Source: Escherichia phage vB_vPM_PD06. From it: a stretch of DNA of 64,000 bases. Below are positions 1,545 to 17,107 of this stretch, piece after piece. The notes beneath the pieces are model-generated. The model was not told the origin of the DNA, made no database searches, and worked only from the letters and a program-made list of their open reading frames with translations. The number at the start of each line of letters is the position of its first letter. Position 1 is the stretch's first letter. The DNA lies in sequence record NC_052653.1; one strand, 5' to 3'. Made by a program: the position numbers and the translations under genes.

Positions 1545-3032
1545 TTAGACTCCGTACTCGTAGGAAATATTATCAAGGTCAAAGGATGGTACAACATTGT
1601 ACGCTGGAGTAATATCTCCCTCATTATATTTACTGTCATCCTCAGTATTAAGTTTAACATAAACACGGAGAGAAGTCAAGCGTCCGAACGCAAGTGCAGA
1701 ATAAATTACACCTTTTATCTGATCGTTAGTTACTGTTGACCCTAATTCAAAATAAGCCTGTAAGTTTGCAAGAGCAGAAACAATATTTTCCCTTTCTGTT
1801 GTACTTAACACACTACCATTGCCAGTTTGATACACCAGTTTAAGCGAGTATTCCGCATTATCCCCAGGAGAAAAACGAATTACTTCTTGACCACCATCTT
1901 CTGTTATGATAGTAATTGCTGTTGTACCATAGGTTAAGGTGTTAATAGGCTTAGTATTATAAATAACCTGTGCAACTTCTTCTGCTGTACCACCATACAC
2001 AATAGTCTGGAATGTCATAGCTGGAGCATGTTCCTGATCATGTAGTGTAGGGTTATCATAAATCTTAACCTTTGTCACACCATCTGTCAGTAGTAGAGCT
2101 TTAACAATAGCAGCACGAGTAGCAGCATTAGCTTCATCCATATTATCATTGAAACGAGAGCGGAATTCTGCATCTGTTTCAACATCCGTACCTGGAGAGA
2201 ATGGATAGAAGTTACCTGTATCTAAAAAGCCTGTAAACGTTGAAGAAATACCTGTAATACTTTCTGTACCTACTGGATTATAACCAACGTCTGAACACGT
2301 AACTGGAATTTCACTCCATTTTGTACCAATTGCAATAGATGCGTAAAATTTCACTGGTGTTACTAGACCTATTGGGTTAACATTATCTTCTGGATTATAA
2401 CCCATATAAACATTACTAGCATCATTCCATACTAAAGCACGATCTGTTGTTGATACGTTAGCTTTAATGAAATTCGTGAGATCTAAAATAAAGTTTGTAT
2501 TGCTAGGACTTAATGTTTTACTGTTAAGACCACCATCAATAGCACTTTGAATGTAGAAAGTAATAGAAGTTTCACCAGAAGCTGTTGCGTTTGCTTTAGA
2601 AATGGTGTATGCTCCAATCTTAGCATTCAACATTGTTGGTGCACTGACATAATATGTCAAATCGTTATCGGCATTAAAATAAACATCTGTGCTTAGCTCA
2701 TAAGTCCAAGCTGCCTTATTGTTAGATTTAACATAAGCATGACCACTACCAGCAGAAGCAGCTTTACGATAAAAACCTCTTTTAGAGAAGATTTCATCAA
2801 GGTAAATACCTTCTGCACCATCTAAGGTTTGGGTATTGTAAACACCTTGCATACCTTCCCAAAGGGTGTAATCTGTGTATGCAATAATACGGAACAGTTG
2901 ACCAAAGACAGTATCTTCAGATGTAGCTGTATCTGCACCGAAAGTGTTTTTCAATGCTGTCATATAATTATTTAAAATATCATCAAACGTTGGAATTACA
3001 AAACCAGCATCTGTTAAACCATAATCTGCCAT
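1545..3032 (-). CDS. baseplate J-like wedge protein
   Basis: 495 aa; N-terminal pattern (MADYGLTDAGFVIPTFDDIL...) resembles baseplate J family proteins; position in baseplate cluster. Confidence 0.5.
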   Translation of the reverse strand: MADYGLTDAGFVIPTFDDILNNYMTALKNTFGADTATSEDTVFGQLFRIIAYTDYTLWEGMQGVYNTQTLDGAEGIYLDEIFSKRGFYRKAASAGSGHAYVKSNNKAAWTYELSTDVYFNADNDLTYYVSAPTMLNAKIGAYTISKANATASGETSITFYIQSAIDGGLNSKTLSPSNTNFILDLTNFIKANVSTTDRALVWNDASNVYMGYNPEDNVNPIGLVTPVKFYASIAIGTKWSEIPVTCSDVGYNPVGTESITGISSTFTGFLDTGNFYPFSPGTDVETDAEFRSRFNDNMDEANAATRAAIVKALLLTDGVTKVKIYDNPTLHDQEHAPAMTFQTIVYGGTAEEVAQVIYNTKPINTLTYGTTAITIITEDGGQEVIRFSPGDNAEYSLKLVYQTGNGSVLSTTERENIVSALANLQAYFELGSTVTNDQIKGVIYSALAFGRLTSLRVYVKLNTEDDSKYNEGDITPAYNVVPSFDLDNISYEYGV

Positions 3033-3277
3033 TAATTATCCTCCTTATCAGGGGCAGGTGATCTGCCCCAACGTAAATCTATTAAATTCTTCATTAGTCT
3101 GGATGGTGTGATCATAAAAACAAAAGCCCAGCCCATCCATTCAGGAATTTCTTTATCAATTCCCAAATAAATAAACATACTGGACATAACAATCATACCA
3201 ATAGCATTCCAAACTTTAGTAGAACTGACTTTATTATCAGGATATGTACAAAACATACCTATTAAAAATTTTCTCAT
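3032..3277 (-). CDS. small membrane protein (two predicted hydrophobic helices)
   Basis: 81 aa with two hydrophobic stretches and a charged C-terminus; function unknown. Confidence 0.35.
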   Translation of the reverse strand: MRKFLIGMFCTYPDNKVSSTKVWNAIGMIVMSSMFIYLGIDKEIPEWMGWAFVFMITPSRLMKNLIDLRWGRSPAPDKEDN

Positions 3278-3582
3278 GGTGCGTTCTCATTACTTTTTAA
3301 ATCACGATATACAGCTAATTCCCCAAGGTCTACAGAACCCGCTGAATGCACAAGTACAGCAGCACTAAGACTAATGGCAGTAGTACCTGGGGCAATATCA
3401 GCAGGTAGGGAATACGCCCTTTGCGTCTCCTTATCATAGATAACCTTATACCCACCCAAATCCACACCAACTGAGAAGTAAACAACCTCAGATTGTTTAA
3501 CTCCAAAGTGACGGGCTACTGCTTGTTTATTGGTTAAGATTCCGGTTGAACCTTTACCACCTTGGGAGAACATTTCGTTCAT
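3274..3582 (-). CDS. hypothetical protein
   Basis: 102 aa ORF overlapping downstream gene start by 4 nt. Confidence 0.4.
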   Translation of the reverse strand: MNEMFSQGGKGSTGILTNKQAVARHFGVKQSEVVYFSVGVDLGGYKVIYDKETQRAYSLPADIAPGTTAISLSAAVLVHSAGSVDLGELAVYRDLKSNENAP

Positions 3583-3829
3583 AACAACCTCTTTGTTTTT
3601 CTAAGTAAGCCCCTCTTTGGAGGGGCTTGCAGTGGTAGTGACAACACTTTGAGTTAGTACGATAGTAACTAAAGACAAGATTAACCCTGCTACGATATGT
3701 TTTCATCATTTTATCACATGGCGATGACATGCGCTTGCAGGACATAGTTTGTATGGGTTGTGCGGAATGCCATTTTTGGCCTCTTGTCATCAATAAGTAA
3801 GTATTCATTTCCCCCGCCGAAGCGGGGTT

Positions 3830-5947
3830 TTATATTAAACCATACACTACATTGTGTATTGTTAAACTGCCAATCGAGTTCCCAACATTAAAATTCACCT
3901 CAGCCTTGTATGCTCCTTGAGGGACTGAATCCACTAAAGCATAAAAATTGAATGTGTCGCCTACTGGGATGTTATACCCTATGGAATCCGCAACAGCATT
4001 TCCTTGCTGGTCCAGGAATCTAATTGACGCCAGGGTTGTTGTTAGATTTTTAGCCCAAAAACCAAGCTGAAAATAACGACCAGGCTCACAATCAATGATT
4101 GTTTGGGTGAAATTAGCTGCTGCCTCAGCTGATGGTACAGATAAAACAAAAGAAGTTGAAAACATTAAATCATTAGGAACATCGTTTGCTGTAGTAGCAG
4201 TGACAACTCCTGTTCCAGTTTGCGATAGTGTCCAGTTAGATGTGTTTAAAAACTGTCCTGAGCCATTACTGATGCTATTAATATAAGGGCTTACAATGCT
4301 CCCTAAATTCCAGTTACTTGTGATAAATCCTGCCCGTGGATAGCACCCTCTGGACATTACTTTTTTGCTCGCGCCACCTATCAACTGTCTTGTGGGAAAT
4401 CCAGTAGCAATCGTTGTATTCCCATAGAGGGATAACGAGCAATTATTTAGGCTAACAACCCCATCGCCGTTGCTAACAATAGGTACACTGGTATACCCGT
4501 CTGGGAGTAGTATCGTCGAATTACTGACGGTTAATCGTGAACTGCCCTCCACAGTAAACCCAACGAAACTCTGACCAGGTTGGTACTCAATGTTACCGTT
4601 TGTGAAAACCACTGTTGCGTTATCGGATAGCGCAACAGCAGGGTCAAAATATCCTGATTTTTTACCTGCTGGCAGAGAGCAGCCATCGAATATAAATTGA
4701 CCATTAACAAATGTGAAAGGTCCACCGTTGTCAACCATCCAACAATGATTAAATCTTATAACTTCACCGGAATTTGCTGGTGAATTGAAAATAACAGAAT
4801 TTGTAAAACTTCTGGACAACGCACATTTATCAAAAAGAATACGATATGCATTATCAAGAAACTCAATCCCGGCAGTTGAGATAAACCCACTATTAGAGAT
4901 TCTTAACTCTGATACTTCACCACTGGTAGAACCACCGATAGCCAATTTCCTGGAACCTTTCCCGACGAATGACACACCACTAATCAAAGAAGTTGCGTTA
5001 ATTGCATCTCTGTTAGTGTAATCAGCGCCTGTATTAATGATGGTTAGGTAGTAGTCACCGGTTACAGATGAAGATTCTGTTAAAGTACATTTATTTTTTC
5101 CAATAAGTGCGCCTTTTGCTATGTCGAAAATAATTGGTGTTGTTATCTCTCCTGAAACAGGGACTACACAGTCAAACCCGGCAGCGTTTATTGTGTTGAT
5201 GAATACCGCCAAATCTTCGGTTCCAGTATAACCAGCATCATACACATCCACGGAACCATTGAAGAATTTTCTTTTCCATACCACACCGTTTCCGGGGAAG
5301 GTAACAATATTGTCTATAGCTGTATCCGCGCTAACAGCTACCATAATACCACCACCAAAGTTAAAACCGCTCACATACGAATCAAGTATTATGGAATCAC
5401 CAATTGATCCTGATATTGATGATAACTCAGAAACTGATGATGCAGTTCCTATATAAGACAAGCCATTTGTTTTATTTAAATCACCCCTCAGGGTGGCATC
5501 ACCAACACTAGCCCACGCACTAGGACCAACACCACCGGTTGATGTAGGGGTTGAGTCAGCGGGAACAGCTTTAGGGAAAGCACCACCCCATGTATAGCAC
5601 TGTCCACCTGCAATATACCAAACAGCATCAGTATTATTATTTAATGTAGCACCATCCTCAAAGCTACCATCAACAAGTGTTAACCCCGCTTCAGCAAGAC
5701 TACGACGCCACTGTTCACGATCATTAAGAAGATTGTTATTCAACTCTTCCTGAACAGTATTACCATTTGAGGATTGTATTAAATCTGCTCCATCTGTATC
5801 TTTCAACTGGGTGGCTAAAACCACCCCAGTGTCAGTAAGAAAATTAGAAACTGTGCTTTTAACGGTCTTATCAGGTTGGTCTAAAACTAGGTAATCAGAA
5901 CCATTAACTTTTGATGTTTCCGGTAAATTAGTAATTGTAGTTGACAT
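3830..5947 (-). CDS. tailspike protein with N-terminal anchor motif and beta-helix-like repeat body (putative polysaccharide depolymerase)
   Basis: 705 aa; N-terminus MSTTITNLPETSKVNGSDYLVLDQ...TVKSTVSNF is a tailspike anchor-type motif; long Gly/Ser/Asn-rich repetitive core typical of parallel beta-helix enzymes. Confidence 0.55.
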   Translation of the reverse strand: MSTTITNLPETSKVNGSDYLVLDQPDKTVKSTVSNFLTDTGVVLATQLKDTDGADLIQSSNGNTVQEELNNNLLNDREQWRRSLAEAGLTLVDGSFEDGATLNNNTDAVWYIAGGQCYTWGGAFPKAVPADSTPTSTGGVGPSAWASVGDATLRGDLNKTNGLSYIGTASSVSELSSISGSIGDSIILDSYVSGFNFGGGIMVAVSADTAIDNIVTFPGNGVVWKRKFFNGSVDVYDAGYTGTEDLAVFINTINAAGFDCVVPVSGEITTPIIFDIAKGALIGKNKCTLTESSSVTGDYYLTIINTGADYTNRDAINATSLISGVSFVGKGSRKLAIGGSTSGEVSELRISNSGFISTAGIEFLDNAYRILFDKCALSRSFTNSVIFNSPANSGEVIRFNHCWMVDNGGPFTFVNGQFIFDGCSLPAGKKSGYFDPAVALSDNATVVFTNGNIEYQPGQSFVGFTVEGSSRLTVSNSTILLPDGYTSVPIVSNGDGVVSLNNCSLSLYGNTTIATGFPTRQLIGGASKKVMSRGCYPRAGFITSNWNLGSIVSPYINSISNGSGQFLNTSNWTLSQTGTGVVTATTANDVPNDLMFSTSFVLSVPSAEAAANFTQTIIDCEPGRYFQLGFWAKNLTTTLASIRFLDQQGNAVADSIGYNIPVGDTFNFYALVDSVPQGAYKAEVNFNVGNSIGSLTIHNVVYGLI

Positions 5948-5955
5948 TTTTACTC

Positions 5956-8115
5956 CTATATATAAAATTTTTGTGTTGTTACTAAATCTTCTCCAGATTT
6001 AGTGGCTAATGTAATTCCACTTATAGTGGCAATCTCAACATTTACCTGTTTAAGAGTGATATCTTGCAAGTAGCAATTCAAAGGCACATTACCCATATAA
6101 AACACTTGGGATTTTGAATTAAGAACAGTTATTGAATCATGCATTATTTGTGGGTAAGCCCATATGTATTGATATAAACCAACAAACTTCTGATCATTCA
6201 ATACAATATTACCTATAATCATTTTCCACAAATATGTTCTGTAGTCTGATTCAGGATCAAAGCCATATAATGGTGCTAGAGTTGCGTCTGGAACAAACCC
6301 TGCAAGATAATGTATCTTATCATAACTAAAACCTAGTTGCTCATTAGGTATTTTGATAGCGTCGAAAGATCTTTCCATCTGACCTTCCAACAACCAGTCA
6401 TAACATTCTGAACAATAAAAGTCAAAGTTTTCTGGGATATAATAATCTTTAGGGAAGTTAACAAACTCCATCATACCGTTACCTAAAATGGATGGCACAA
6501 ATGGTAATAATGTAACTTTAGCTCCAGGATAGGCTAATTTAGTATCTGTTGCAAATTTAGCAACACGCAGTCCTAATGTTTTAGATAGGAATGCATAATA
6601 TTCATCATATGGTGTACCAGTTTTATAATTCTTAACTGTACCAACATCTTGTGCATATAATCCAGTTTCATTATTAAATGCAACTTTGGTTGCATAATCA
6701 TAAATACACGGGAGATTGGTAGCTGTGTTATACCACCACCACGGTTCACCAACCTGAATAATAACAGGAAGATCATTGGCAGCGGATATAGAAGCTATCT
6801 TATTTATTACACCTTGTAAATAATTCATCCCTTCATCAATTGAAGGAGATAAAACATAACTTGGTGGCTCATAACCTGTAGCAGCCAGATCATCATTCCA
6901 AGTATGTTGTACCCATTCTACAGGACACACTGTACTCATAAGTTCAAAACTTAAGGAGTTCATTACTGTGTAGCCCATAGCTTTTGCATTAGCGTGGAAA
7001 TTATCAAACCAGGCTTCTGTTGCTGGGTTTAAATATTCTGTTCTATTCAAAGCCCATTTATTAGATCCAGCATCCCAACTAAATTGATAATAGTGTGACA
7101 TACCATTATAATGGTTAATCATATCTCTATAACCTAATCTATAGGTGTTAGAAATAACTCGCTCTGGGGTTAGGTTATACATATCATCATAAGATGTACA
7201 CATTCTTATGGTGTGTGCTGGAACATTTAAATTACCCATATTCATCATACTATAACCCGTATCAGGTTCCAGTATGGTAAACTTAAAGGAAAGATCCTCA
7301 TTGTCTACAGGAATAATATCTTCAATTTCTTGATACCTTGTGGAGATCAAGGAGAAGAACATATTATCTATCTGTGTAGTGTCAACAACAATATCATTTT
7401 CTGGCCCAGATTTTAAATTTGAGAAATCTAATTTTATTGTTGCTGTTTTACCATCCTCTGAAACTTCTTCTGCATAAAAGTTTAGAGATACATAATGAAC
7501 TGTTTCATCCTTCAGTGTCACTGTTAAGGATGGCAATAATTTTTCTTCTTTTAATCCAGGAACACCTTGACTAAGTTCCATTTTAAACCAAAGTTTCTCT
7601 TTACTTAAGTCAGAATGTTCTTGGTAGCCTAATCCTTTGTGATCATATTTATCGTAAGTTGACCAAATAATCCCAGCAAGACCAGCCACTGTCCTATTAA
7701 CCATTCTTGCTGTGAAAGAATCACCATTAGAGATAATAGAACAACTTTCTGTTGCTTGAGAATCTATTGTCCAAAACTTAGGATCAAACATTCTAGACTT
7801 CACAACAGGCCAAGTTAGCGGGGTTGTATTCGATTGATTAGTCGTAATAACACAACGAATTTCTTCATTGATCATCATGTTATTTTGACTTATGCTAGTA
7901 ATCTCAAGAGTAAAATAAAGATCTAAAGAGTTTGCCGGACGTTCATATACATCAACCACCACAGTAGCAGAATCTGCATCAGAAGGGAACGTTACTGTTC
8001 CCTGTTTAGCTACATAATCTCTACCAGCGACCGCCGTTCCATCGACGGTCTTATAGCTGAATGAACTGGCATTTACTCTCGTATTTCGAGTTACAGTAAA
8101 AATAGCCTGTTTCAT
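5956..8115 (-). CDS. tail-associated protein with N-terminal Calx-beta-like domain and glycoside-hydrolase-like body
   Basis: 719 aa; N-terminal TVDGTAVAGRDYVAKQGTVTFPSDADSATVVVDV matches the Calx-beta signature; remainder aromatic-rich (PVIIQVGEPWWWY) like carbohydrate-active enzymes. Confidence 0.45.
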   Translation of the reverse strand: MKQAIFTVTRNTRVNASSFSYKTVDGTAVAGRDYVAKQGTVTFPSDADSATVVVDVYERPANSLDLYFTLEITSISQNNMMINEEIRCVITTNQSNTTPLTWPVVKSRMFDPKFWTIDSQATESCSIISNGDSFTARMVNRTVAGLAGIIWSTYDKYDHKGLGYQEHSDLSKEKLWFKMELSQGVPGLKEEKLLPSLTVTLKDETVHYVSLNFYAEEVSEDGKTATIKLDFSNLKSGPENDIVVDTTQIDNMFFSLISTRYQEIEDIIPVDNEDLSFKFTILEPDTGYSMMNMGNLNVPAHTIRMCTSYDDMYNLTPERVISNTYRLGYRDMINHYNGMSHYYQFSWDAGSNKWALNRTEYLNPATEAWFDNFHANAKAMGYTVMNSLSFELMSTVCPVEWVQHTWNDDLAATGYEPPSYVLSPSIDEGMNYLQGVINKIASISAANDLPVIIQVGEPWWWYNTATNLPCIYDYATKVAFNNETGLYAQDVGTVKNYKTGTPYDEYYAFLSKTLGLRVAKFATDTKLAYPGAKVTLLPFVPSILGNGMMEFVNFPKDYYIPENFDFYCSECYDWLLEGQMERSFDAIKIPNEQLGFSYDKIHYLAGFVPDATLAPLYGFDPESDYRTYLWKMIIGNIVLNDQKFVGLYQYIWAYPQIMHDSITVLNSKSQVFYMGNVPLNCYLQDITLKQVNVEIATISGITLATKSGEDLVTTQKFYI

Positions 8116-8123
8116 TATTTTCC

Positions 8124-11000
8124 TTATTTGGTTACATCAACACTAATATCATTCATAGTTAGAACAGTTAGTGTTGGTATGTTACTATTATCCAAAATTG
8201 GTAAAGCGTTTTGAGGGTTTAGTTTACGATACAAGGCATATAAACCAAAACCACGTAATAGTTCTCCAGCATGGAAACCAAAGAACATTCCGTTATCTGA
8301 ATCTGGGCGTGGTGCAACACTCCAGGAACCATTCATCGGATGGTTAGGGGAAAGCACAATATAGTTTTGCTGAATCAGATCAAAACATCTGTCTGCTACA
8401 ATACCAATGTTTGGAATTTGTGAATCATAACCTGCCAAGCCCATGATTGAACAACCCGCCATAAACAGTGCAGACATATGACTAGTAAAGTCATCTATAG
8501 GTGCAAGAACTGTACCATCTGGATTAAAGATAGTTGGTGTTCTTCCATCATTATTGTCTTGGAACCATTTAAGGTAGTTGATCCAATTTTTACAAACAGT
8601 TACTAGTTTTTCAGGAGGTGTTTCTCCTCTTTGTACAAGTTCGTATACAGCATGACAAGCACAGTAGAATGCACGAGCTTCATAACCATCCCACGCTTTT
8701 TCATTCCAGTGTTTCATTGTAAACGTATTAGGTTCACCGTATTTTCTTGCATCCCAACGATCCCACACATATGCTTGTGCCATAGGCCCAGGCATCACAG
8801 GATCAAACGTGTTATAAAACCACATTTGAGCATCATACAAGAAATCAATACTGTTGTTTAAACGTGTCCAATCAATATCCCTACCTGCGAAACAGTATAA
8901 GGAAGGATACTGGTATCCTGGGTATGGAATACCACGCCATCCATCGTATAATGCAGTGTTTGGGTCACTGATATTAGAGAATGGAATTATTCCTGGTGTG
9001 TAATTAAGACTATTTAACTTATAGTCAATAATAGTACAATCACCTAACTTAGCAGTATGAGGATTTGAAGCCTGTACAGTAATACGGAAGTACATGGTAT
9101 AATCATCACCAGAAGATGACGAATATCTTTCAGGTACATCGTTAATACAATAGAAATCTATTGTTCCTGTTAAACCATTGACAGGAGCCGTATCAAGAAC
9201 TAAATTTACCTGATCTACAGCAGTAAGATTTATTGCTGAAGGTTTAGGATCTGTTTCTGGATGATTAGGCTGGTAAGCACTTAACTTAAAAGCAGAGGCT
9301 GATAAAGTCTTCGTACTCCATGCCCCTTGCGTTTTAGGCAGCATAGCCCACCATCTCCAACCTTGAGCATCCGTGATAGTCATGTTAAAGTCATCTTCAT
9401 ATGTTCTATATGTAATAGACTTAACATTAGCTTTTGATGTAGGAGTTAACCAAAAACCAACAGTGATACCACCATCCGTATCCATTGATGCAGTAACAAT
9501 CTGGTCATTATTAGTTCCAGCAATACCTGTTACATACTTATATTGTACCACAGTATTGTCACCCCAGTCAACAATAATTCGCGGATCTGCGATAATATAT
9601 GTTCCACCACTAGGAGGGGTACTTCTCATAAAGCTGGATAGTGGAATATCCATGCTTGTCATATTAGCTGTACCTAGTGGTAAGCCACAACGGTAAGTTA
9701 CTGTGTTATTTTCATCTTTGGTCTTACTTAATTCCAACTCTGGACGGAAAAGAATACCATGTCCTGCGTCATCTACACCTTGAAACTGAACTCGTAATTT
9801 AGAGTTCTGATCAACTTTAAACCAAATGGATTGCTGTTCTAATGTTGTTTGAGCAGCAACATCTTGTCTAATAACAATATAACCTAAAGTATCTCTTGAA
9901 TATTTAGGTATTGCTGTAGATGGATACGAATAATCGTAAGAGATGCCATCTGTAAACGGAATAGTTGCATATGTAGACTTACGGAAGAATTTATCAAACA
10001 TATCAATGTTTGAGTAATCTTGACACACTAACAGTGAAGATTGCCAGCATAGCCAATATTTTCTTTCTCCTGTAATTTGGTACATCAGGTAATTAGCATC
10101 ACACCACCAAGTTTCGGCATCTGACGCATTATCCTGAAAGCCAATTTCTACCGGAACGTTAACTGGTCTGTTATGCCACATAGTGTTACGCTCCATTAAA
10201 TAACCACCGTGTTCAACAGGGTTACAAGTCGCATAGTTAAATTTATATGTACCGTTTACAGAAGTATTTTTTAGTTGAACTGTTCCGTATTGAGATGTTG
10301 GAAAACCTTCTTCTAAGATATTTCCATCCCAATCAACTTTACGTCCTAGACGATCAATGATCCAATCAACATCCCATTGATCTCCATTCTTAGACCAATC
10401 TGTTGTACCATCTGCATTAACAGCATATACTGTAGCGTTTACAGAGTTCCATCCTAGATTACCATTAAAAGCAAACCATGCTTTATCAAGGTATTCTCCC
10501 CAATGTGGAGCACCATGAGGAATAACTGTTCTACCGTTAGTCCACGTCATTAAGCTACCCTTAAAACCTCCGTGTGTAGGGTAGCCATCATCTGTAAGAG
10601 GATAGTGTGCAAGACGTGGTTCTTTACCGTTAATAATCCAGTTAGGGCGATATTTTGCTGGCGGATCTGGGATAGGTTGACCACCAAAGAAGTAATCTAT
10701 ATAGGCTTGCCAATATTTTTTAGCAGAGTCTAAATACTTTGTATCGCCGGAAGCCAGGTATGCATAAGCGCAACCAAGAATAAGCACGGATTGACCTTCT
10801 GTTGTAGCATCCCCGTTTGGTTGCCCTTCTTGAGCAGTCCAGTTTATAAAGTGTCTGTTATTAGCTAGAACGTTTTGTGGGTTTAATACATAGTGTTGCA
10901 CTGTAGGATCTACAGTTAAACCTGTATTACGATCTAAGAACTGAATATGTCCATCGATCAGTTGAAAAACATTGTCAATTCTGTGCTTAATTCTTGACAT
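8124..11000 (-). CDS. large tail-associated glycosidase-like protein (putative depolymerase catalytic subunit)
   Basis: 958 aa, Trp/Tyr-rich, no anchor motif of its own; start codon overlaps stop of the upstream anchor-motif ORF (TAATG). Confidence 0.45.
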   Translation of the reverse strand: MSRIKHRIDNVFQLIDGHIQFLDRNTGLTVDPTVQHYVLNPQNVLANNRHFINWTAQEGQPNGDATTEGQSVLILGCAYAYLASGDTKYLDSAKKYWQAYIDYFFGGQPIPDPPAKYRPNWIINGKEPRLAHYPLTDDGYPTHGGFKGSLMTWTNGRTVIPHGAPHWGEYLDKAWFAFNGNLGWNSVNATVYAVNADGTTDWSKNGDQWDVDWIIDRLGRKVDWDGNILEEGFPTSQYGTVQLKNTSVNGTYKFNYATCNPVEHGGYLMERNTMWHNRPVNVPVEIGFQDNASDAETWWCDANYLMYQITGERKYWLCWQSSLLVCQDYSNIDMFDKFFRKSTYATIPFTDGISYDYSYPSTAIPKYSRDTLGYIVIRQDVAAQTTLEQQSIWFKVDQNSKLRVQFQGVDDAGHGILFRPELELSKTKDENNTVTYRCGLPLGTANMTSMDIPLSSFMRSTPPSGGTYIIADPRIIVDWGDNTVVQYKYVTGIAGTNNDQIVTASMDTDGGITVGFWLTPTSKANVKSITYRTYEDDFNMTITDAQGWRWWAMLPKTQGAWSTKTLSASAFKLSAYQPNHPETDPKPSAINLTAVDQVNLVLDTAPVNGLTGTIDFYCINDVPERYSSSSGDDYTMYFRITVQASNPHTAKLGDCTIIDYKLNSLNYTPGIIPFSNISDPNTALYDGWRGIPYPGYQYPSLYCFAGRDIDWTRLNNSIDFLYDAQMWFYNTFDPVMPGPMAQAYVWDRWDARKYGEPNTFTMKHWNEKAWDGYEARAFYCACHAVYELVQRGETPPEKLVTVCKNWINYLKWFQDNNDGRTPTIFNPDGTVLAPIDDFTSHMSALFMAGCSIMGLAGYDSQIPNIGIVADRCFDLIQQNYIVLSPNHPMNGSWSVAPRPDSDNGMFFGFHAGELLRGFGLYALYRKLNPQNALPILDNSNIPTLTVLTMNDISVDVTK

Positions 11001-11473
11001 TAAATCACTCCTGCCATCACTAAACTACCTATCCAGGTAGCTCCATTATCATAACTAACAAATTCAAAAATATCTGTAGCTCCCTGTTTATAACTCAAAA
11101 CAGGAGCTCGACCAAAACTCCATTTAACAGATTGAGGCCACGTTACTTTATTTGCTCCACTTCCTTGACGTAGGGATAGAGTAAAGTTTTGAACAATGTT
11201 AGTTGTAACTGGAACATTACTAAATGAAATACTGCAAGTTGGACTAGATAAAGTGGCAGAGAAATACTCTGCCGTGCTAATATCTAAAGCTAGGGTATTT
11301 GTAACAGTACCCCTTGCAGAAAGACGATTTCGTGTAACACCAGCACCAGCAAGAAGAACACGTAATGATGTTTTCTTAGTGATGCCTGATTGATCTGTTA
11401 CAAAATAATCTGTGTCTGAAACAGATGTTGTTACAGGTAGATCAGACACCTTGATTGTAGTTAAATCAGCCAT
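11000..11473 (-). CDS. tailspike anchor/adaptor protein
   Basis: 157 aa; N-terminus MADLTTIKVSDLPVTTSVSDTDYFVTDQSGITKKTSL shares the anchor motif with the 3830-5947 tailspike. Confidence 0.45.
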   Translation of the reverse strand: MADLTTIKVSDLPVTTSVSDTDYFVTDQSGITKKTSLRVLLAGAGVTRNRLSARGTVTNTLALDISTAEYFSATLSSPTCSISFSNVPVTTNIVQNFTLSLRQGSGANKVTWPQSVKWSFGRAPVLSYKQGATDIFEFVSYDNGATWIGSLVMAGVI

Positions 11474-12101
11474 TATTATTTGTAGCTCCCATTGTTGCTG
11501 TTATAGCATAGTTGTAATTGGTTGCAAGACCTTTATTGGCTTCGTTAACAAGGTATTTTTCAAGCAATGCCTCGTTAGACCACTCATTCCACCAAGTAGA
11601 ATAAGTATCTTTAGGAAGACCAACAATGTTAATAAAGCGATAGAGTCTATTTGCAGATTCAACAATTTCAAATGCTTCACAAGTGATTGCTGCATTATCA
11701 TCACCAGCCTCTGGATAGATATATTCTTCAGACGGCTGTGTACTGAATAGAGCACTAACAACTTGTTCACCAACTGTAACAGTAACGTTCATTGAGTAAT
11801 ACCTATCATCTCTATCATAAGAGGATGTGTAGGAATTAATATTATCTATATAAACATTACTTGCGATAGTTGATAAGAAAATGCGATCAACAATCTCTTT
11901 CTTCTTGGCAACACCAATAATCTCTTGCAGATATGGAACCCCAAAATTAGAGTTGAGGAACCATTCTCCACGGAAAGTTCTAAGTGTTATTCCAAGCGTC
12001 TGTGCTGCAATTTCACTTTTAGTTGTGGTTAGTGTTAAATCACCATCCACCATTACTAAATCGTTAGAACCATCAAGTTTTAAATCAAATGGTATTCCCA
12101 T
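11466..12101 (-). CDS. hypothetical baseplate protein
   Basis: 211 aa ORF in baseplate cluster. Confidence 0.35.
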   Translation of the reverse strand: MGIPFDLKLDGSNDLVMVDGDLTLTTTKSEIAAQTLGITLRTFRGEWFLNSNFGVPYLQEIIGVAKKKEIVDRIFLSTIASNVYIDNINSYTSSYDRDDRYYSMNVTVTVGEQVVSALFSTQPSEEYIYPEAGDDNAAITCEAFEIVESANRLYRFINIVGLPKDTYSTWWNEWSNEALLEKYLVNEANKGLATNYNYAITATMGATNNNG

Positions 12102-12104
12102 CTG

Positions 12105-12842
12105 TTAACCTCCATTTGGTTTGTCGGAAGTAACAGTGCTACCACCAGTTTCAACACCGCGTACAGGGTGTGTATGTGTGTGTAAACCAATGCCGCCACT
12201 ATCTTTCATACGACCGTCAGGTGTGATTGTTAAACCGTTTAAATTTACAGTGCCACCTTTATATGTCATAGTCCCACCTTGCAGTGTAAGTTTTCCTCCT
12301 CCTGCATCAGTAAGAACGATACTGTCTGGTGTCATATCTATTTTCATACCTTGTGTGTTGTACACAGATATATTACCGTTAGGATCAAACGAAGCGTAAG
12401 TTTGCTTATTATTTGAGATAACAACTTTTTCAGAATCTACTTCTTCTGAAGAATCTGTAGCTGTTGCTATCTTAGGAATAAAACAGGCTGGATACAAACC
12501 ACAAGGTTGAATTAATGTTCCGCTGCTGGCTGTATCCCCGTCTGTCTGGAAAGCATTCGACGGATCTCTTTCTGAAAAGACAACAACACCAATATCTCCT
12601 GCTTTAATTGGAAATGAAATTCTACCTGTACCACCACCATTTACCATAAAAGGAACATCGTGGAATGTTGGGTAATCTATTTCATCTTCAGTAGATCTGG
12701 TATTTTTTACGATAGATTCTAAAGTTACTGTCTTAGATCCATAATCTACACCAATTACCCTTACAGGTAAAGATGTATGTACTTCCGCAACTTGCTCGTT
12801 GATTAATCCACGGATTGCTGTTACAAAATTTAAAGCATCCAT
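12105..12842 (-). CDS. baseplate central spike protein
   Basis: 245 aa; Gly-rich beta-repeat C-terminus with HTHTHP metal-binding-like tip, as in gpV/gp5-type spikes. Confidence 0.5.
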   Translation of the reverse strand: MDALNFVTAIRGLINEQVAEVHTSLPVRVIGVDYGSKTVTLESIVKNTRSTEDEIDYPTFHDVPFMVNGGGTGRISFPIKAGDIGVVVFSERDPSNAFQTDGDTASSGTLIQPCGLYPACFIPKIATATDSSEEVDSEKVVISNNKQTYASFDPNGNISVYNTQGMKIDMTPDSIVLTDAGGGKLTLQGGTMTYKGGTVNLNGLTITPDGRMKDSGGIGLHTHTHPVRGVETGGSTVTSDKPNGG

Positions 12843-12844
12843 TT

Positions 12845-13855
12845 CTAGCCCTTCTTAATAATTGCAGATACAGATACAGACTCTACTTCAGTTGTCCAGT
12901 CTTTACCTTCCCTATCTCCTGTATGAACAACAGATACTACCTTAAAACCACCATCGTAGTTATGGCTCTTGAGCCAAACAGTTTTTTCTGGTAGGATAGC
13001 ACCGTTCATTTCACATCTGAACTTAACACCATCTGTAGGCTTTTTAGCTTTCTTAGAAGATTTAGTTACTTTTTGTGTCGGTTTAATATCGTTGTGGAAA
13101 GGTTCTGGACTACCAATTAAACCTGTTTCTGCACTAATATATGCGCATCTTGCACTAGACATTTGTGATCTTGGTGTTACGTAAACAGATCCGTCTTGTA
13201 TTGACACATTATGATCAATACCTTTACAGATACTTTCTAAGTAATGTGATGTGTTCCCACACATAGCTGTTGCAGATGATAAAGTTTTCTCTGTGTCTAC
13301 GTGAATATTACCTTCTGTAGTACCTAAATCTTTAACTAAATCTTTAACAACCTTACTTACTTTTGTACCTTTCGGATAACTTCTGCTTGTCCTTGCTTCG
13401 GAGATGTTAATACCACCATCCAGACAATGTAACACTGTACGTCTGTCTGTATTGTTAAAGGTATCACTCACCCATTGCACCGTTCCCTTAAAGATCATAA
13501 TTAACTCTTGACCTTCATAACCTACCGCTAAAGCAACAGCCAAGTTGTTACGAATACCTTTGTTAATATAATTAACAGTATCATCACTTAGGTTATAAAT
13601 AGTTATCTCGGCTTGATTAGGATCTTTGTTATTATCTTTTCTTATTGTGAAAGATATTTGGTGCTCCGTAATAACATACAAGTTAGGGGTTGATTTTTTA
13701 GCATCCCCTAGTTTAGTATCTAAGTCTACTGTAGATTTGAAAGAGGAATTTTTTGTCCTTTTTTCTTTAGTATTAGTAGCTGTACCTATTAACAGTTTGT
13801 ATGCTCTGTTTAGATTTGGTGCAGGAGCTTTTGTGTAATTTCTTTCTTCTGCCAT
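12845..13855 (-). CDS. baseplate hub-like protein
   Basis: 336 aa ORF immediately upstream of the spike gene; positional inference only. Confidence 0.35.
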   Translation of the reverse strand: MAEERNYTKAPAPNLNRAYKLLIGTATNTKEKRTKNSSFKSTVDLDTKLGDAKKSTPNLYVITEHQISFTIRKDNNKDPNQAEITIYNLSDDTVNYINKGIRNNLAVALAVGYEGQELIMIFKGTVQWVSDTFNNTDRRTVLHCLDGGINISEARTSRSYPKGTKVSKVVKDLVKDLGTTEGNIHVDTEKTLSSATAMCGNTSHYLESICKGIDHNVSIQDGSVYVTPRSQMSSARCAYISAETGLIGSPEPFHNDIKPTQKVTKSSKKAKKPTDGVKFRCEMNGAILPEKTVWLKSHNYDGGFKVVSVVHTGDREGKDWTTEVESVSVSAIIKKG

Positions 13856-15012: not shown

Positions 15013-15090
15013 ATAATTTTACCTCTTAATGTGATAAGAAACATTCTCCCTTATCACTCATTTTATCACGAAAAACAACTCTTTGTCAAG

Positions 15091-15120
15091 ACAAATAAAA
15101 AGCCCCGCCGAAGCGAGGCT
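15091..15120 (-). terminator. intrinsic terminator after tape measure gene
   Basis: Minus strand reads GCCTCGC-TTCG-GCGGGGC hairpin followed by TTTTATTTGT. Confidence 0.5.
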
Positions 15121-15127
15121 TTATGCA

Positions 15128-17107
15128 TTAACCACCAGTAGAAGATTGTCCACTGCTTAACTGAAGAGTTAAACCTTGTGAGAAGTTACTAAAACTGGTA
15201 TTCATTGTCGCATCTAGATAATTACTAAAACCATAGCCATCTGGAATAACATTAATCTGGAATGCGTTGTCTGGGATAACAACCGTATTCTCTACACTTA
15301 ATGGTACTGGAACACCTTGGCGTGGTGTTAGCATAGATGCTGTTAAATCAGGTCTATTGTAACCGATACTAGAAGCACTTGGGTTTAAGGCACTAGTTAA
15401 GAAACTACTATCAAAGTCACCTAAAGGTTGATTTTCAGGTTTATGTTGATCTCTTCCAATAGGCCAATAAGCCCAAGGATTACCACCAACCTGTGCATCG
15501 TACCCATACTGCGTACCATTATAATAATCTCTTACAGCTTCTTTAGAATTGTTTTTTGGCCCAACCTTATTTGAAAAATCAAGGAAATATTTCGCAATTT
15601 TTGCAAGGCTACTTACAATACTACCAGACATTTCACCAAGACCACGAGCAGCTTCTTGGAAAGTTTTCATATTCTCTGCAAAATCTGGTGCAGATTTTAA
15701 ACCATCCATGAATCCTATAAGTAAGTTATTGGTAAAACCTTCTCCTGCTGCACTAATTTGTGCTCTTAGCTTAACAAAATCTTGTGCTGCTTTGATGTTT
15801 TCATCGTTAAGAGTTGCTCCTGAATTTTTTAACATATCCAAGACTTTCATGTACTCTTTACCGTTATCCAAAAACATACGTTGGTAGTGCATTAAGTCAT
15901 CACCAAGGTTTTCCATCAAACGACCAATTTGCGCGGAGTTCATTCCTCTTTTTTGACCTTCATTAACAAGTGCTTGAACAAAGTCTAAAGGTCTGTTCTG
16001 GAATTTAGCAACGTCTTCTTTCGACCAACCAAATTGGTTCATGATTTCATTAATACCACTATCTCCACCTTTCCATTTACCTGATTTTTCATCAAATTCG
16101 GAGTGGAGTACAGTATTACCTAAACGTTCACGAACGTCTTTAATATTGTCAATGGCTTTAATAATGCTGGCAGAGTCTACACCGTTCATCTCACCCCAAG
16201 TACGCATTGTTAAAATTGCATTAGGGTTTACCTGTACGTTCTGACCACCTTTACTAACCATATTAATACGTTCTGCCGCAGTTGTGATACTTTCAGCTAT
16301 TTTGCTTATACCTTGATATAAACCAGCACCTAAAAGAGCAGCACCAAACATAGCAGGGTTAAGAGCAATAGCAGCATTACCTACACCAGATAGCTTACGT
16401 TGTCTGTCGCGTTGTCTTGCTTCTTTTTCTCTTCTTTGCTGACGTTCGAAATCCTTTCTTTCTCTTTCTCGGATACGCTGTCTTCTTTTATCTTCTGCTT
16501 CTTGCAGACGGGCAATTCTACGTCTAGCTCTCTCTTCATCAAGAAGTTGTGCATTCTTCTCTTTATGAGATCTGCGTAGTTCTTCTAACTGTCTAGCCAA
16601 AGTATTATTCATTTGTTGGCTAGTGATCACACCTTTACGATAAAGTTCAACAGTTTCTTCTACAATCTTTTTAGATTTTTCTAGAATTCTGCTGTCTGCT
16701 TTTGTAAAAGGCATAGCTTTAAAACTAAAATCGTCTTGCTTCATATTAGCAAGTGCTGCACGTTTAGCGGCGGCTTCTGCGGCTCTTTCTTCTGGTGTTT
16801 TACGTCCTCCAGAAGATCCAGAACCACCTCTACCACTTCCTCCTTTTCCACCACCACTTGAACCTCCGGTTGGTGGGATTGGTGGAGGATTACCGCCGCC
16901 AAGACCTGACATTTGCTGCCTTATTCTTTTAGCATACTCTTCCATACTTTTAAACTGACGACGCATTTTAGTCATATTTAAAGATGGTTCAATAGATTCT
17001 GTAAAAGTTTTAAGGTTTTTAATTGCGTCTTTAGTATTTTTTAAACTGTCTTTATCTACAGTAAACGTTACTGTATTCTTAATCTTGGAAGTGTTAATTT
17101 CTAACAA
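15128..17107 (-). CDS. tail tape measure protein
   Basis: 659 aa; Gly-rich low-complexity segment, Arg/Glu-rich coiled coil, hydrophobic segment; follows the frameshifted chaperone pair. Confidence 0.6.
   Translation of the reverse strand: MLEINTSKIKNTVTFTVDKDSLKNTKDAIKNLKTFTESIEPSLNMTKMRRQFKSMEEYAKRIRQQMSGLGGGNPPPIPPTGGSSGGGKGGSGRGGSGSSGGRKTPEERAAEAAAKRAALANMKQDDFSFKAMPFTKADSRILEKSKKIVEETVELYRKGVITSQQMNNTLARQLEELRRSHKEKNAQLLDEERARRRIARLQEAEDKRRQRIRERERKDFERQQRREKEARQRDRQRKLSGVGNAAIALNPAMFGAALLGAGLYQGISKIAESITTAAERINMVSKGGQNVQVNPNAILTMRTWGEMNGVDSASIIKAIDNIKDVRERLGNTVLHSEFDEKSGKWKGGDSGINEIMNQFGWSKEDVAKFQNRPLDFVQALVNEGQKRGMNSAQIGRLMENLGDDLMHYQRMFLDNGKEYMKVLDMLKNSGATLNDENIKAAQDFVKLRAQISAAGEGFTNNLLIGFMDGLKSAPDFAENMKTFQEAARGLGEMSGSIVSSLAKIAKYFLDFSNKVGPKNNSKEAVRDYYNGTQYGYDAQVGGNPWAYWPIGRDQHKPENQPLGDFDSSFLTSALNPSASSIGYNRPDLTASMLTPRQGVPVPLSVENTVVIPDNAFQINVIPDGYGFSNYLDATMNTSFSNFSQGLTLQLSSGQSSTGG

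Follow-up and report, generated by a model that had tools for sequence, protein, structure and literature searches.

Adaptor-mediated Tail Appendages and a Proposed Further Case

Tail appendages mounted through adaptor proteins are already known from K1E/K1-5, CBA120, and G7C. In podophages of the K1E, K1-5, and SP6 type, a gp37-type adaptor with a T7 gp17-like N-domain carries the enzymatic tailspikes (summarized in PMC13450770). CBA120 (TSP1 to TSP4) and G7C (gp63.1 and gp66) display branched complexes, in which several receptor-binding proteins sit on each other by way of N-terminal modules. The present report concerns two overlapping genes of Escherichia phage vB_vPM_PD06, at positions 8124 to 11473 of a 64,000-nucleotide (nt) stretch of sequence record NC_052653.1, referred to here as the window. 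Comparative sequence analysis suggests that their products, of 157 and 958 amino acids (aa), are probably, although far from certainly, two subunits of one tail appendage, namely an adaptor and an enzyme-like distal subunit.

Phage phi92 has essentially the same genes, gp140 and gp141 (100 and 99.5% protein identity), and the two names are used here for the whole families. The phi92 annotation of both genes, overlap included, dates from 2012 (Schwarzer et al.), and its GenBank record shows an identical 1-nt overlap and an identical ribosome-binding site. The accessible phi92 literature lists gp141 among five spikes and fibers, as a "glycosidase" with no partner named, and no rule that pairs the two genes is stated there. 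The conserved pairing of gp141 with the C-terminal domain of gp140, termed gp140C in this analysis, appears to be undescribed. Searches of open-access text on Justusliebigvirus, Vequintavirinae adaptors, Rosemountvirus, and phiR8-01 turned up no description of the gp140C-gp141 cassette, of its spread with swapped anchors, or of the glycoside hydrolase family 8 (GH8)-like fold of gp141.

The locus resembles the K1E, K1-5, and SP6 systems in combining what would be a small virion-bound adaptor with a large anchor-less enzyme, and in the podovirus phiR8-01 the small protein, g043, has a Phage_T7_tail N-domain. Unlike in those systems, the docking end would be gp140C and the cargo would be a single conserved GH8-like family rather than interchangeable capsule-specific depolymerases. 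As in CBA120 and G7C, the Tail_spike_N module (PF18668, found in TSP1 and gp66) occurs here too, in a 705-aa tailspike encoded nearby as well as in gp140 of rV5 and of Seunavirus, but gp140 of the window is without it.

Pairing of gp141 with gp140C

A gp140C-ending gene next to gp141 is nearly obligatory, whatever the morphotype of the phage. Loci with a gp141 homolog (121 in all, drawn from IMG/VR, GenBank phages, and GTDB with one genome for each species) were scanned with a hidden Markov model (HMM) of gp140C. The gene directly upstream of gp141 ends in gp140C in 95 loci, which is 95 of the 97 evaluable loci with a free-standing gp141. In another 20, all P2-like prophages, gp141 is instead fused at its N terminus to a complete Tail_P2_I domain, that of P2 gpI, in a 1097-aa protein, and gp140C is absent throughout the locus. 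A contig end truncates four loci, and two, L118 and L120, are exceptions. The copy in L118 (positions 3992 to 6754 of a metagenome-assembled Enterobacteriaceae genome) encodes a 920-aa homolog with no gp140C gene upstream; its neighbors look bacterial, including a secreted peptidase-like protein and a membrane signaling protein, and it may be domesticated or orphaned.

The gpI fusion points to a location at the baseplate periphery. An ordinary P2 H fiber and Tfa chaperone follow the fused gene, which suggests that gp141 is an add-on there. The window encodes no gpI-gp141 fusion, and attachment of its gp141 must be non-covalent.

The upstream partners vary in everything except their ends. Among 88 distinct proteins of 107 to 563 aa, at least 16 unrelated N-terminal classes precede one constant gp140C, and those recognized by Pfam are known virion-attachment modules. 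These include Phage_T7_tail, the N-domain of the T7 fiber (phiR8-01 g043 and L086), Stf-type phage_tail_N (L109 and L123), a lambda-type tail tube domain followed by fiber repeats (Escherichia coli and Enterobacter prophages), and, in rV5, the N-terminal motif of gp140 together with Tail_spike_N. The order of the pair and its tight junction are kept in phi92, rV5, Seunavirus LNA4, Bas54, Rosemountvirus birk, S144, and phiR8-01, and the pair is present in rV5-like, Seunavirus, Rosemountvirus, jumbo, podo-, and siphophage genomes. For example, rV5 gp043 (222 aa) is followed by gp042 (865 aa), which is 35% identical to gp141 (E = 9e-178), and LNA4 has proteins of 224 and 929 aa with the identical 1-nt overlap. 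Among GenBank phages, gp140 has matches in 526 records and gp141 in 529; the counts per genus are the same and the coordinates adjacent. The pairwise identities of gp140C co-vary with those of gp141 (r = 0.915, a value reached by none of 2000 Mantel permutations); r is 0.35 for pairs below 60% gp141 identity.

Three features argue for physical coupling of the two proteins: recognizable attachment modules interchange in front of a constant gp140C, a covalent gpI fusion exactly replaces gp140C, and gp141 itself has no anchor. In the proposed model, the genes would be co-transcribed and translationally coupled. gp140 would serve as the virion-proximal adaptor, its first ∼48 residues binding the particle through a motif of the type that holds the exchangeable tailspike of phi92-like phages, and gp140C (∼100 residues) would form the platform for gp141, an anchor-less accessory resembling carbohydrate-active enzymes. 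We infer that gp140C binds gp141 directly; the end of gp141 that would be bound, the stoichiometry, and the baseplate site on which the N-terminal motif would dock are likewise parts of the model.

Other observations concern the cassette in individual lineages. In E. coli and Enterobacter prophages (L005 and L006, positions 6319 to 8001, and 33 similar loci), a 560-aa protein combines a lambda-type tube N-domain, TINGxALTGNITL repeats, and a C-terminal gp140C, and precedes a gp141 homolog. Downstream there is another tube-like gene, of 156 aa, and the enzyme may thus be carried by a paralog of the tube protein on siphophage tails; the 156-aa protein of L005 was itself considered as a gp140-like candidate and rejected, as it shows no similarity. 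In Salmonella phage birk (L130, 3792 to 7372) and S144 (L213, 2907 to 6484), the cassette lies between the neck or head-tail connector genes and the sheath gene. This position outside the baseplate module in Rosemountvirus and Loughboroughvirus suggests that the appendage may be mounted elsewhere on the virion. Records MG065646 to MG065689, labeled "Campylobacter phage" (A110a, C2, C3, C7, D1, and A141), have gp140 and gp141 99 to 100% identical to those of E. coli phi92-like phages or, as in rV5-like phages, ∼42 and 35% identical. Their genomes are as large as phi92-like or rV5-like ones, and the Campylobacter host label looks doubtful.

The Gene Junction

The first-pass annotation of this DNA placed the two open reading frames (ORFs) correctly, including their lengths and the overlap at TAATG, and offered as one explanation a gene split by a frameshift. 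The two ORFs are genuine separate genes. The junction reads ...GCAGGAGTGATTTAATGTCA, and the AGGAG Shine-Dalgarno sequence of gp141 sits within the 3′ end of the 157-aa gene. A stop/start overlap is found in 80 of the 95 loci with a gp140C-ending gene upstream of gp141.

A single gene broken by mutation or misreading, or a fused product made by programmed frameshifting at the overlap, has almost no chance of being correct. Its sole support is that an ORF with little but an anchor appears to abut a large anchor-less ORF in another frame. However, the same two-ORF arrangement recurs in phi92 and dozens of independently sequenced relatives, all of which keep two ORFs; no intact single ORF was found in close relatives. 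gp140 homologs hold to 155 to 159 aa across 19 clusters of 71 to 99% identity. gp141 is started from its own AGGAG site, and its homologs begin at the identical residue in rV5, at 35% identity, and in Pseudomonas and Serratia prophages. Recoding fares no better, as the junction GTG ATT TAA lacks an X XXY YYZ slippery heptamer and no conserved slippery site was found at a fixed junction. Among lineages, the offset between stop and start varies from −26 to +22 nt, and a conserved recoding site would not allow such variation.

Fused versions in related genomes had been proposed as a check. None of the best 120 of 311 gp141 homologs has a gp140-like N-terminal extension. The only extension among them is 169 aa of Tail_P2_I, and that of P0103, a candidate for a gp140-like extension, was rejected on this ground. 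One weak case lies elsewhere. The L120 locus, from Scandinavium hiltneri, holds a single 1512-aa ORF that joins DUF7941, a gp140C-like domain, and gp141, a possible in-frame natural fusion. The gp140C match is weak but full-length (residues 161 to 249, conditional E = 2e-6), and the gp141 body runs from ∼261 with the ancestral start Met still visible. A homolog search with the N-terminal 376 aa returned no relatives, so this fusion remains a singleton.

The term "split tailspike" therefore describes a real pair under a misleading label, because the small protein has a domain of its own and an unsplit ancestor is not in evidence. The suggestion of a two-polypeptide spike, adaptor plus enzyme, gains support from comparative genomics as regards the pair; the physical complex stays part of the model.

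The 157-aa Protein

The small protein matches PHROG 9017, "tail fiber protein," over its entire length (E = 1.3e-69, residues 1 to 157, 159 profile positions). Its N-terminal motif had been recognized in the first-pass annotation as common to the 705-aa tailspike at 3830 to 5947, and this likeness is real, if weak. Residues 9 to 46 align by BLASTP to residues 5 to 42 of the tailspike (14 of 38 identical, E = 7e-5), and no other ORF in the window matches the motif. An HMM made solely from gp140 homologs was run on the 440 ORFs of five genomes. Its best non-self matches are, genome by genome, to the first ∼45 residues of the fiber or spike whose gene lies downstream of gp141, namely the 712-aa protein of LNA4 (E = 6e-8), the 1272-aa proteins of rV5 and Bas54 (4e-6), EndoN92 of phi92 (7e-4), and the 705-aa protein of the window (0.05). 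In rV5 the matched N terminus is that of gp041.

That the motif is an attachment module is indicated by the 705-aa spike, which keeps residues 1 to 54 of the phi92 endosialidase gp143 (EndoN92) on a swapped body. Identity is 94% over these residues (nt 5786 to 5947) only, and the rest is unrelated. The small subunit thus bears a motif in common with the 54-residue anchor of the exchangeable tailspike. The 705-aa spike fills the gp143 slot of phi92 as a clean cassette exchange, with the anchor kept and the enzyme swapped, and its Tail_spike_N domain resembles residues 23 to 79 of phi92 gp151.

The remaining two-thirds of the protein form gp140C, a distinct domain. Neither Pfam nor PDB sequences gave a match to gp140C, profile search included, and PDB sequence and profile searches with gp140, gp140C, and gp141 returned nothing useful. 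In an exhaustive phmmer search, gp140C-related domains turned up in 5968 cluster representatives, nearly always at the extreme C terminus, in proteins of 92 to more than 2000 aa. P0020, rV5 gp043, and the Seunavirus protein are gp140 with Tail_spike_N inserted between the motif and gp140C. There is no similarity between gp140 and gpI.

The 958-aa Protein

gp141 matches PHROG 2871, "tail protein," with 1590 bits over residues 1 to 957. Its 311 homologs are mostly 920 to 960 aa long, and identity among the 120 matches listed is 43 to 99%. As the first-pass annotation had claimed, the protein lacks the anchor motif. HMM scans gave no match to the N-terminal motif and Pfam no domain, and the only extension seen in homologs is Tail_P2_I, so no attachment module is recognizable in gp141.

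An AlphaFold2 model built with 62 homologs is confident (predicted local distance difference test (pLDDT) 87.4, predicted template modeling score 0.84) and predicts a GH8-like (alpha/alpha)6 barrel with beta-rich inserts resembling carbohydrate-binding modules (CBMs). The barrel helices of the model lie at residues 67 to 104, 293 to 335, and 711 to 924, with the inserts between them, one of which is similar to CBM11 (Foldseek probability 1.0). Identity to the (alpha/alpha)6 hydrolases of GH8, GH105, GH76, and GH88 is ∼9 to 12%, and the gp141 barrel differs from theirs in being interrupted by large beta-rich inserts. The family is 40 to 57% identical between phages of different genera, which is unusually conserved for a host-recognition protein. 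gp141 is probably a polysaccharide-binding or -cutting accessory, one that the phage does not strictly require on laboratory hosts; its catalytic activity and substrate are putative.

Evidence from Homologs and Alternative Explanations

Experiments on related phages bear on these assignments. Mass spectrometry of S144 virions detected both gp16 (21 kDa) and gp17 (111 kDa, annotated as phi92 gp141-like) (PMC7432712). gp16 bears gp140C, with E = 2e-17 to the 157-aa protein of the window. For gp17, 25 peptides were found in virions, and the authors were unable to class it as a spike or a fiber (PMC7432712). In transposon sequencing of the rV5-like phage Bas54, the gp141-like bas54_0026 was intermediate (94 of 189 TA sites) and was called dispensable on K-12 (bioRxiv 10.1101/2025.11.20.689424), as expected for a peripheral accessory.

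Several observations weigh against gp140 as the adaptor of an enzyme-like gp141. The gp140-like gene of Bas54, bas54_0025, is essential, with 7 of 47 TA sites hit (bioRxiv 10.1101/2025.11.20.689424). As its gp141-like neighbor is dispensable, the small protein must do more than carry gp141. The Bas54 data thus give it a further, essential role, presumably in assembling the baseplate or holding other fibers, and "pure adaptor" is too narrow a description. The electron cryomicroscopy study of phi92 (Chen et al. 2026, PMC13450770) names gp140 as a fiber-like candidate that fits no density, and gp141 and gp142 go unmentioned there. The conserved N-terminal helix of gp141 is kept in the gpI fusions without gp140C and so cannot be presumed to be the docking element. 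The monomer model of gp140 is poor (pLDDT 43). No Pfam family, and no curated glycoside hydrolase profile, matches gp141 at E ≤ 0.01, and a PDB profile search turned up nothing beyond a marginal match to GH76 (E = 0.049, spanning 28 residues). Residues E68, D294, D336, D750, and E913 are invariant in 62 sequences, with a catalytic role that is only putative. The L120 fusion comes from one draft genome and has a weak domain score.

The association also holds in one direction only, from gp141 to gp140C and not the reverse. Eighty environmental viral loci with divergent gp140C-like domains, found with P0143, all lack a gp141 homolog, and a variety of genes lies downstream; a scan with P0146 and another with P0142 each yielded a single locus. 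The gp140C superfamily is thus a generic C-terminal fiber module, of which only a subfamily is paired with gp141. The linked subfamily is marked by QG[ST]GAN..[WF]P and [GN]R.PVLS[YF], and the unlinked set shows QD.TGGRT.TWPASVKWP. In six environmental viral contigs (L133, L141, L143, L168, L197, and L206), a gp140C-like domain ends each of two or three genes in a row, without gp141, and the wider family seems to serve as a C-terminal cap common to multiple paralogous fibers.

These results give some weight to the explanation that gp140 is an independent essential protein of the baseplate or a short fiber, either structural or receptor-binding via gp140C, that gp141 is attached elsewhere, and that adjacency reflects co-inheritance and co-expression. 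The Bas54 essentiality pattern, the thousands of gp140C-like fiber C termini with no gp141 nearby, and the listing of gp140 by the phi92 authors as a fiber-like candidate in its own right all speak for it. What it leaves unexplained is that gp141 homologs of podo-, sipho-, and myophages follow a gp140C-ending gene whatever its N terminus, that gp140C is gone exactly where gp141 is covalently fused to gpI, and that gp141 is without a recognizable attachment module; it is accordingly rated unlikely, with roughly the standing of a serious minority view. Far less probable is a role for gp141 as an assembly factor or transient "cap" of a gp140-type fiber, like a downstream tail-fiber chaperone, and not as cargo. 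A fiber gene followed by a translationally coupled partner is the classic fiber-chaperone layout, and Alteromonas fiber/chaperone modules, which are also common to several phage families, provide a precedent (PMC10579305). However, gp141 is neither small nor of a chaperone family: it has 958 aa with a predicted glycosidase-type barrel and CBM-like domains, and Pfam detects no Caudo_TAP or related chaperone domain. In addition, its homolog is abundant in S144 virions, the gp141-like gene of Bas54 is dispensable while its fiber-like partner is essential, and gp141 also exists fused to gpI without any gp140C fiber.

A broader proposal than the two-subunit appendage is more tentative and, on present evidence, somewhat unlikely. 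The gp140C-gp141 unit could be a portable "plug-in" appendage of myo-, sipho-, and podophages of many Gram-negative hosts, with a constant dock and only the anchor changing. Given the 40 to 57% identity of gp141 across phages of Escherichia, Vibrio, Pseudomonas, Stenotrophomonas, Acinetobacter, and Aeromonas, it would target a broadly shared surface or matrix glycan, not a strain-specific capsule or O-antigen. In phi92, gp140-gp141, possibly with gp142, would then form the proximal arm of fiber I or fiber II. In the published structure, fiber I is an L-shaped arm with gp143 at its tip, and fiber II is without an assigned protein (PMC13450770).

Genomic Context

The window derives from a phi92-like myophage of the genus Justusliebigvirus. 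Over positions 3800 to 12900, identity is 98.9% to Escherichia phage vB_vPM_PD114 and ∼98% to many further genomes of Justusliebigvirus (phi92-like phages). The operon for tail and baseplate lies on the minus strand with gene order as in phi92 (Table 1). Immediately upstream, the stop of the gp139 homolog and the start of the 157-aa gene overlap by 8 nt; gp139 is called the sheath initiator in the phi92 structure paper (PMC13450770).

Table 1. Features of the gp140-gp141 region and its neighbors in the window.
Feature	Coordinates	Strand	Remarks
Tape measure	15128-17107	-	Followed by gp135 to gp138 in phi92 order
gp139 homolog, baseplate sheath initiator, upstream neighbor of the 157-aa gene	11466-12101	-	PHROG 120 baseplate wedge subunit
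157-aa ORF, phi92 gp140 homolog, proposed anchor/adaptor subunit	11000-11473	-	100% identical to phi92 gp140
Anchor motif at the N terminus (residues 1-48) of the 157-aa protein	11330-11473	-	BLASTP and HMM matches to spike/fiber N termini
gp140C domain, residues 55-151, proposed gp141 docking domain	11021-11311	-	HMM match, E = 4e-44
Coupling junction	10998-11012	-	AGGAG 11012-11008; 7-nt spacer; TAA 11002-11000; ATG 11000-10998; 1 shared base
958-aa ORF, phi92 gp141 homolog, proposed distal subunit	8124-11000	-	99.5% identical to phi92 gp141
719-aa gp142 homolog, possible further appendage member	5956-8115	-	Calx-beta, NCTSP_N, and TIM barrel (Pfam); 98.5% identical to phi92 gp142
705-aa exchangeable tailspike with paralogous anchor motif	3830-5947	-	Tail_spike_N at residues 93-150
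Wedge protein gp145	1545-3032	-	99.4% identical to phi92 gp145

A promoter and terminator scan found no terminator above chance between the 157-aa and 958-aa genes. A strong intrinsic-terminator-like hairpin, with a 10-bp stem and a T-run, lies between the tape-measure gene and gp135 (15060 to 15122, minus strand) and is directly followed by a sigma-70-like promoter with 11 of 12 matches. This arrangement suggests that the baseplate and fiber operon containing the gp140-gp141 pair begins there.

Downstream of the pair, the gp142 homolog joins a Calx-beta domain to the N-domain of a "non-contractile tail sheath protein" and a TIM barrel. In P0118, a metagenomic protein of 1557 aa, a gp141-like body is naturally fused to gp142-like domains, a hint that gp142 is part of this appendage too. 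Directly 3′ of the tailspike gene is a perfect GC hairpin with a T-run (3812 to 3827). Further on, a 102-aa ORF (3274 to 3582, minus strand) that carries the annotation "tailspike protein" in PD114 and in PaulScherrer shows no similarity to gp143 to gp145 of phi92, and an 84-aa ORF that overlaps it (3554 to 3808, minus strand) is Cys/Arg-rich and probably non-coding.

Implications for Phage Tail Biology

phi92-like and rV5-like phages are prized for their very broad host range, which is ascribed to "Swiss-army-knife" tail appendages. Should the pairing be mere co-inheritance, the result would be only the correct annotation of ordinary overlapping late genes. If gp140 is the adaptor of gp141, there would be a concrete, testable assignment for the unexplained densities of phi92. 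Hundreds of pairs now called "tail protein" and "tail fiber protein" would gain an annotation rule, in which a gp141-family gene either accompanies an anchor ending in gp140C or is fused to gpI. Moreover, such a natural docking pair could serve to graft an enzyme onto an unrelated phage chassis.

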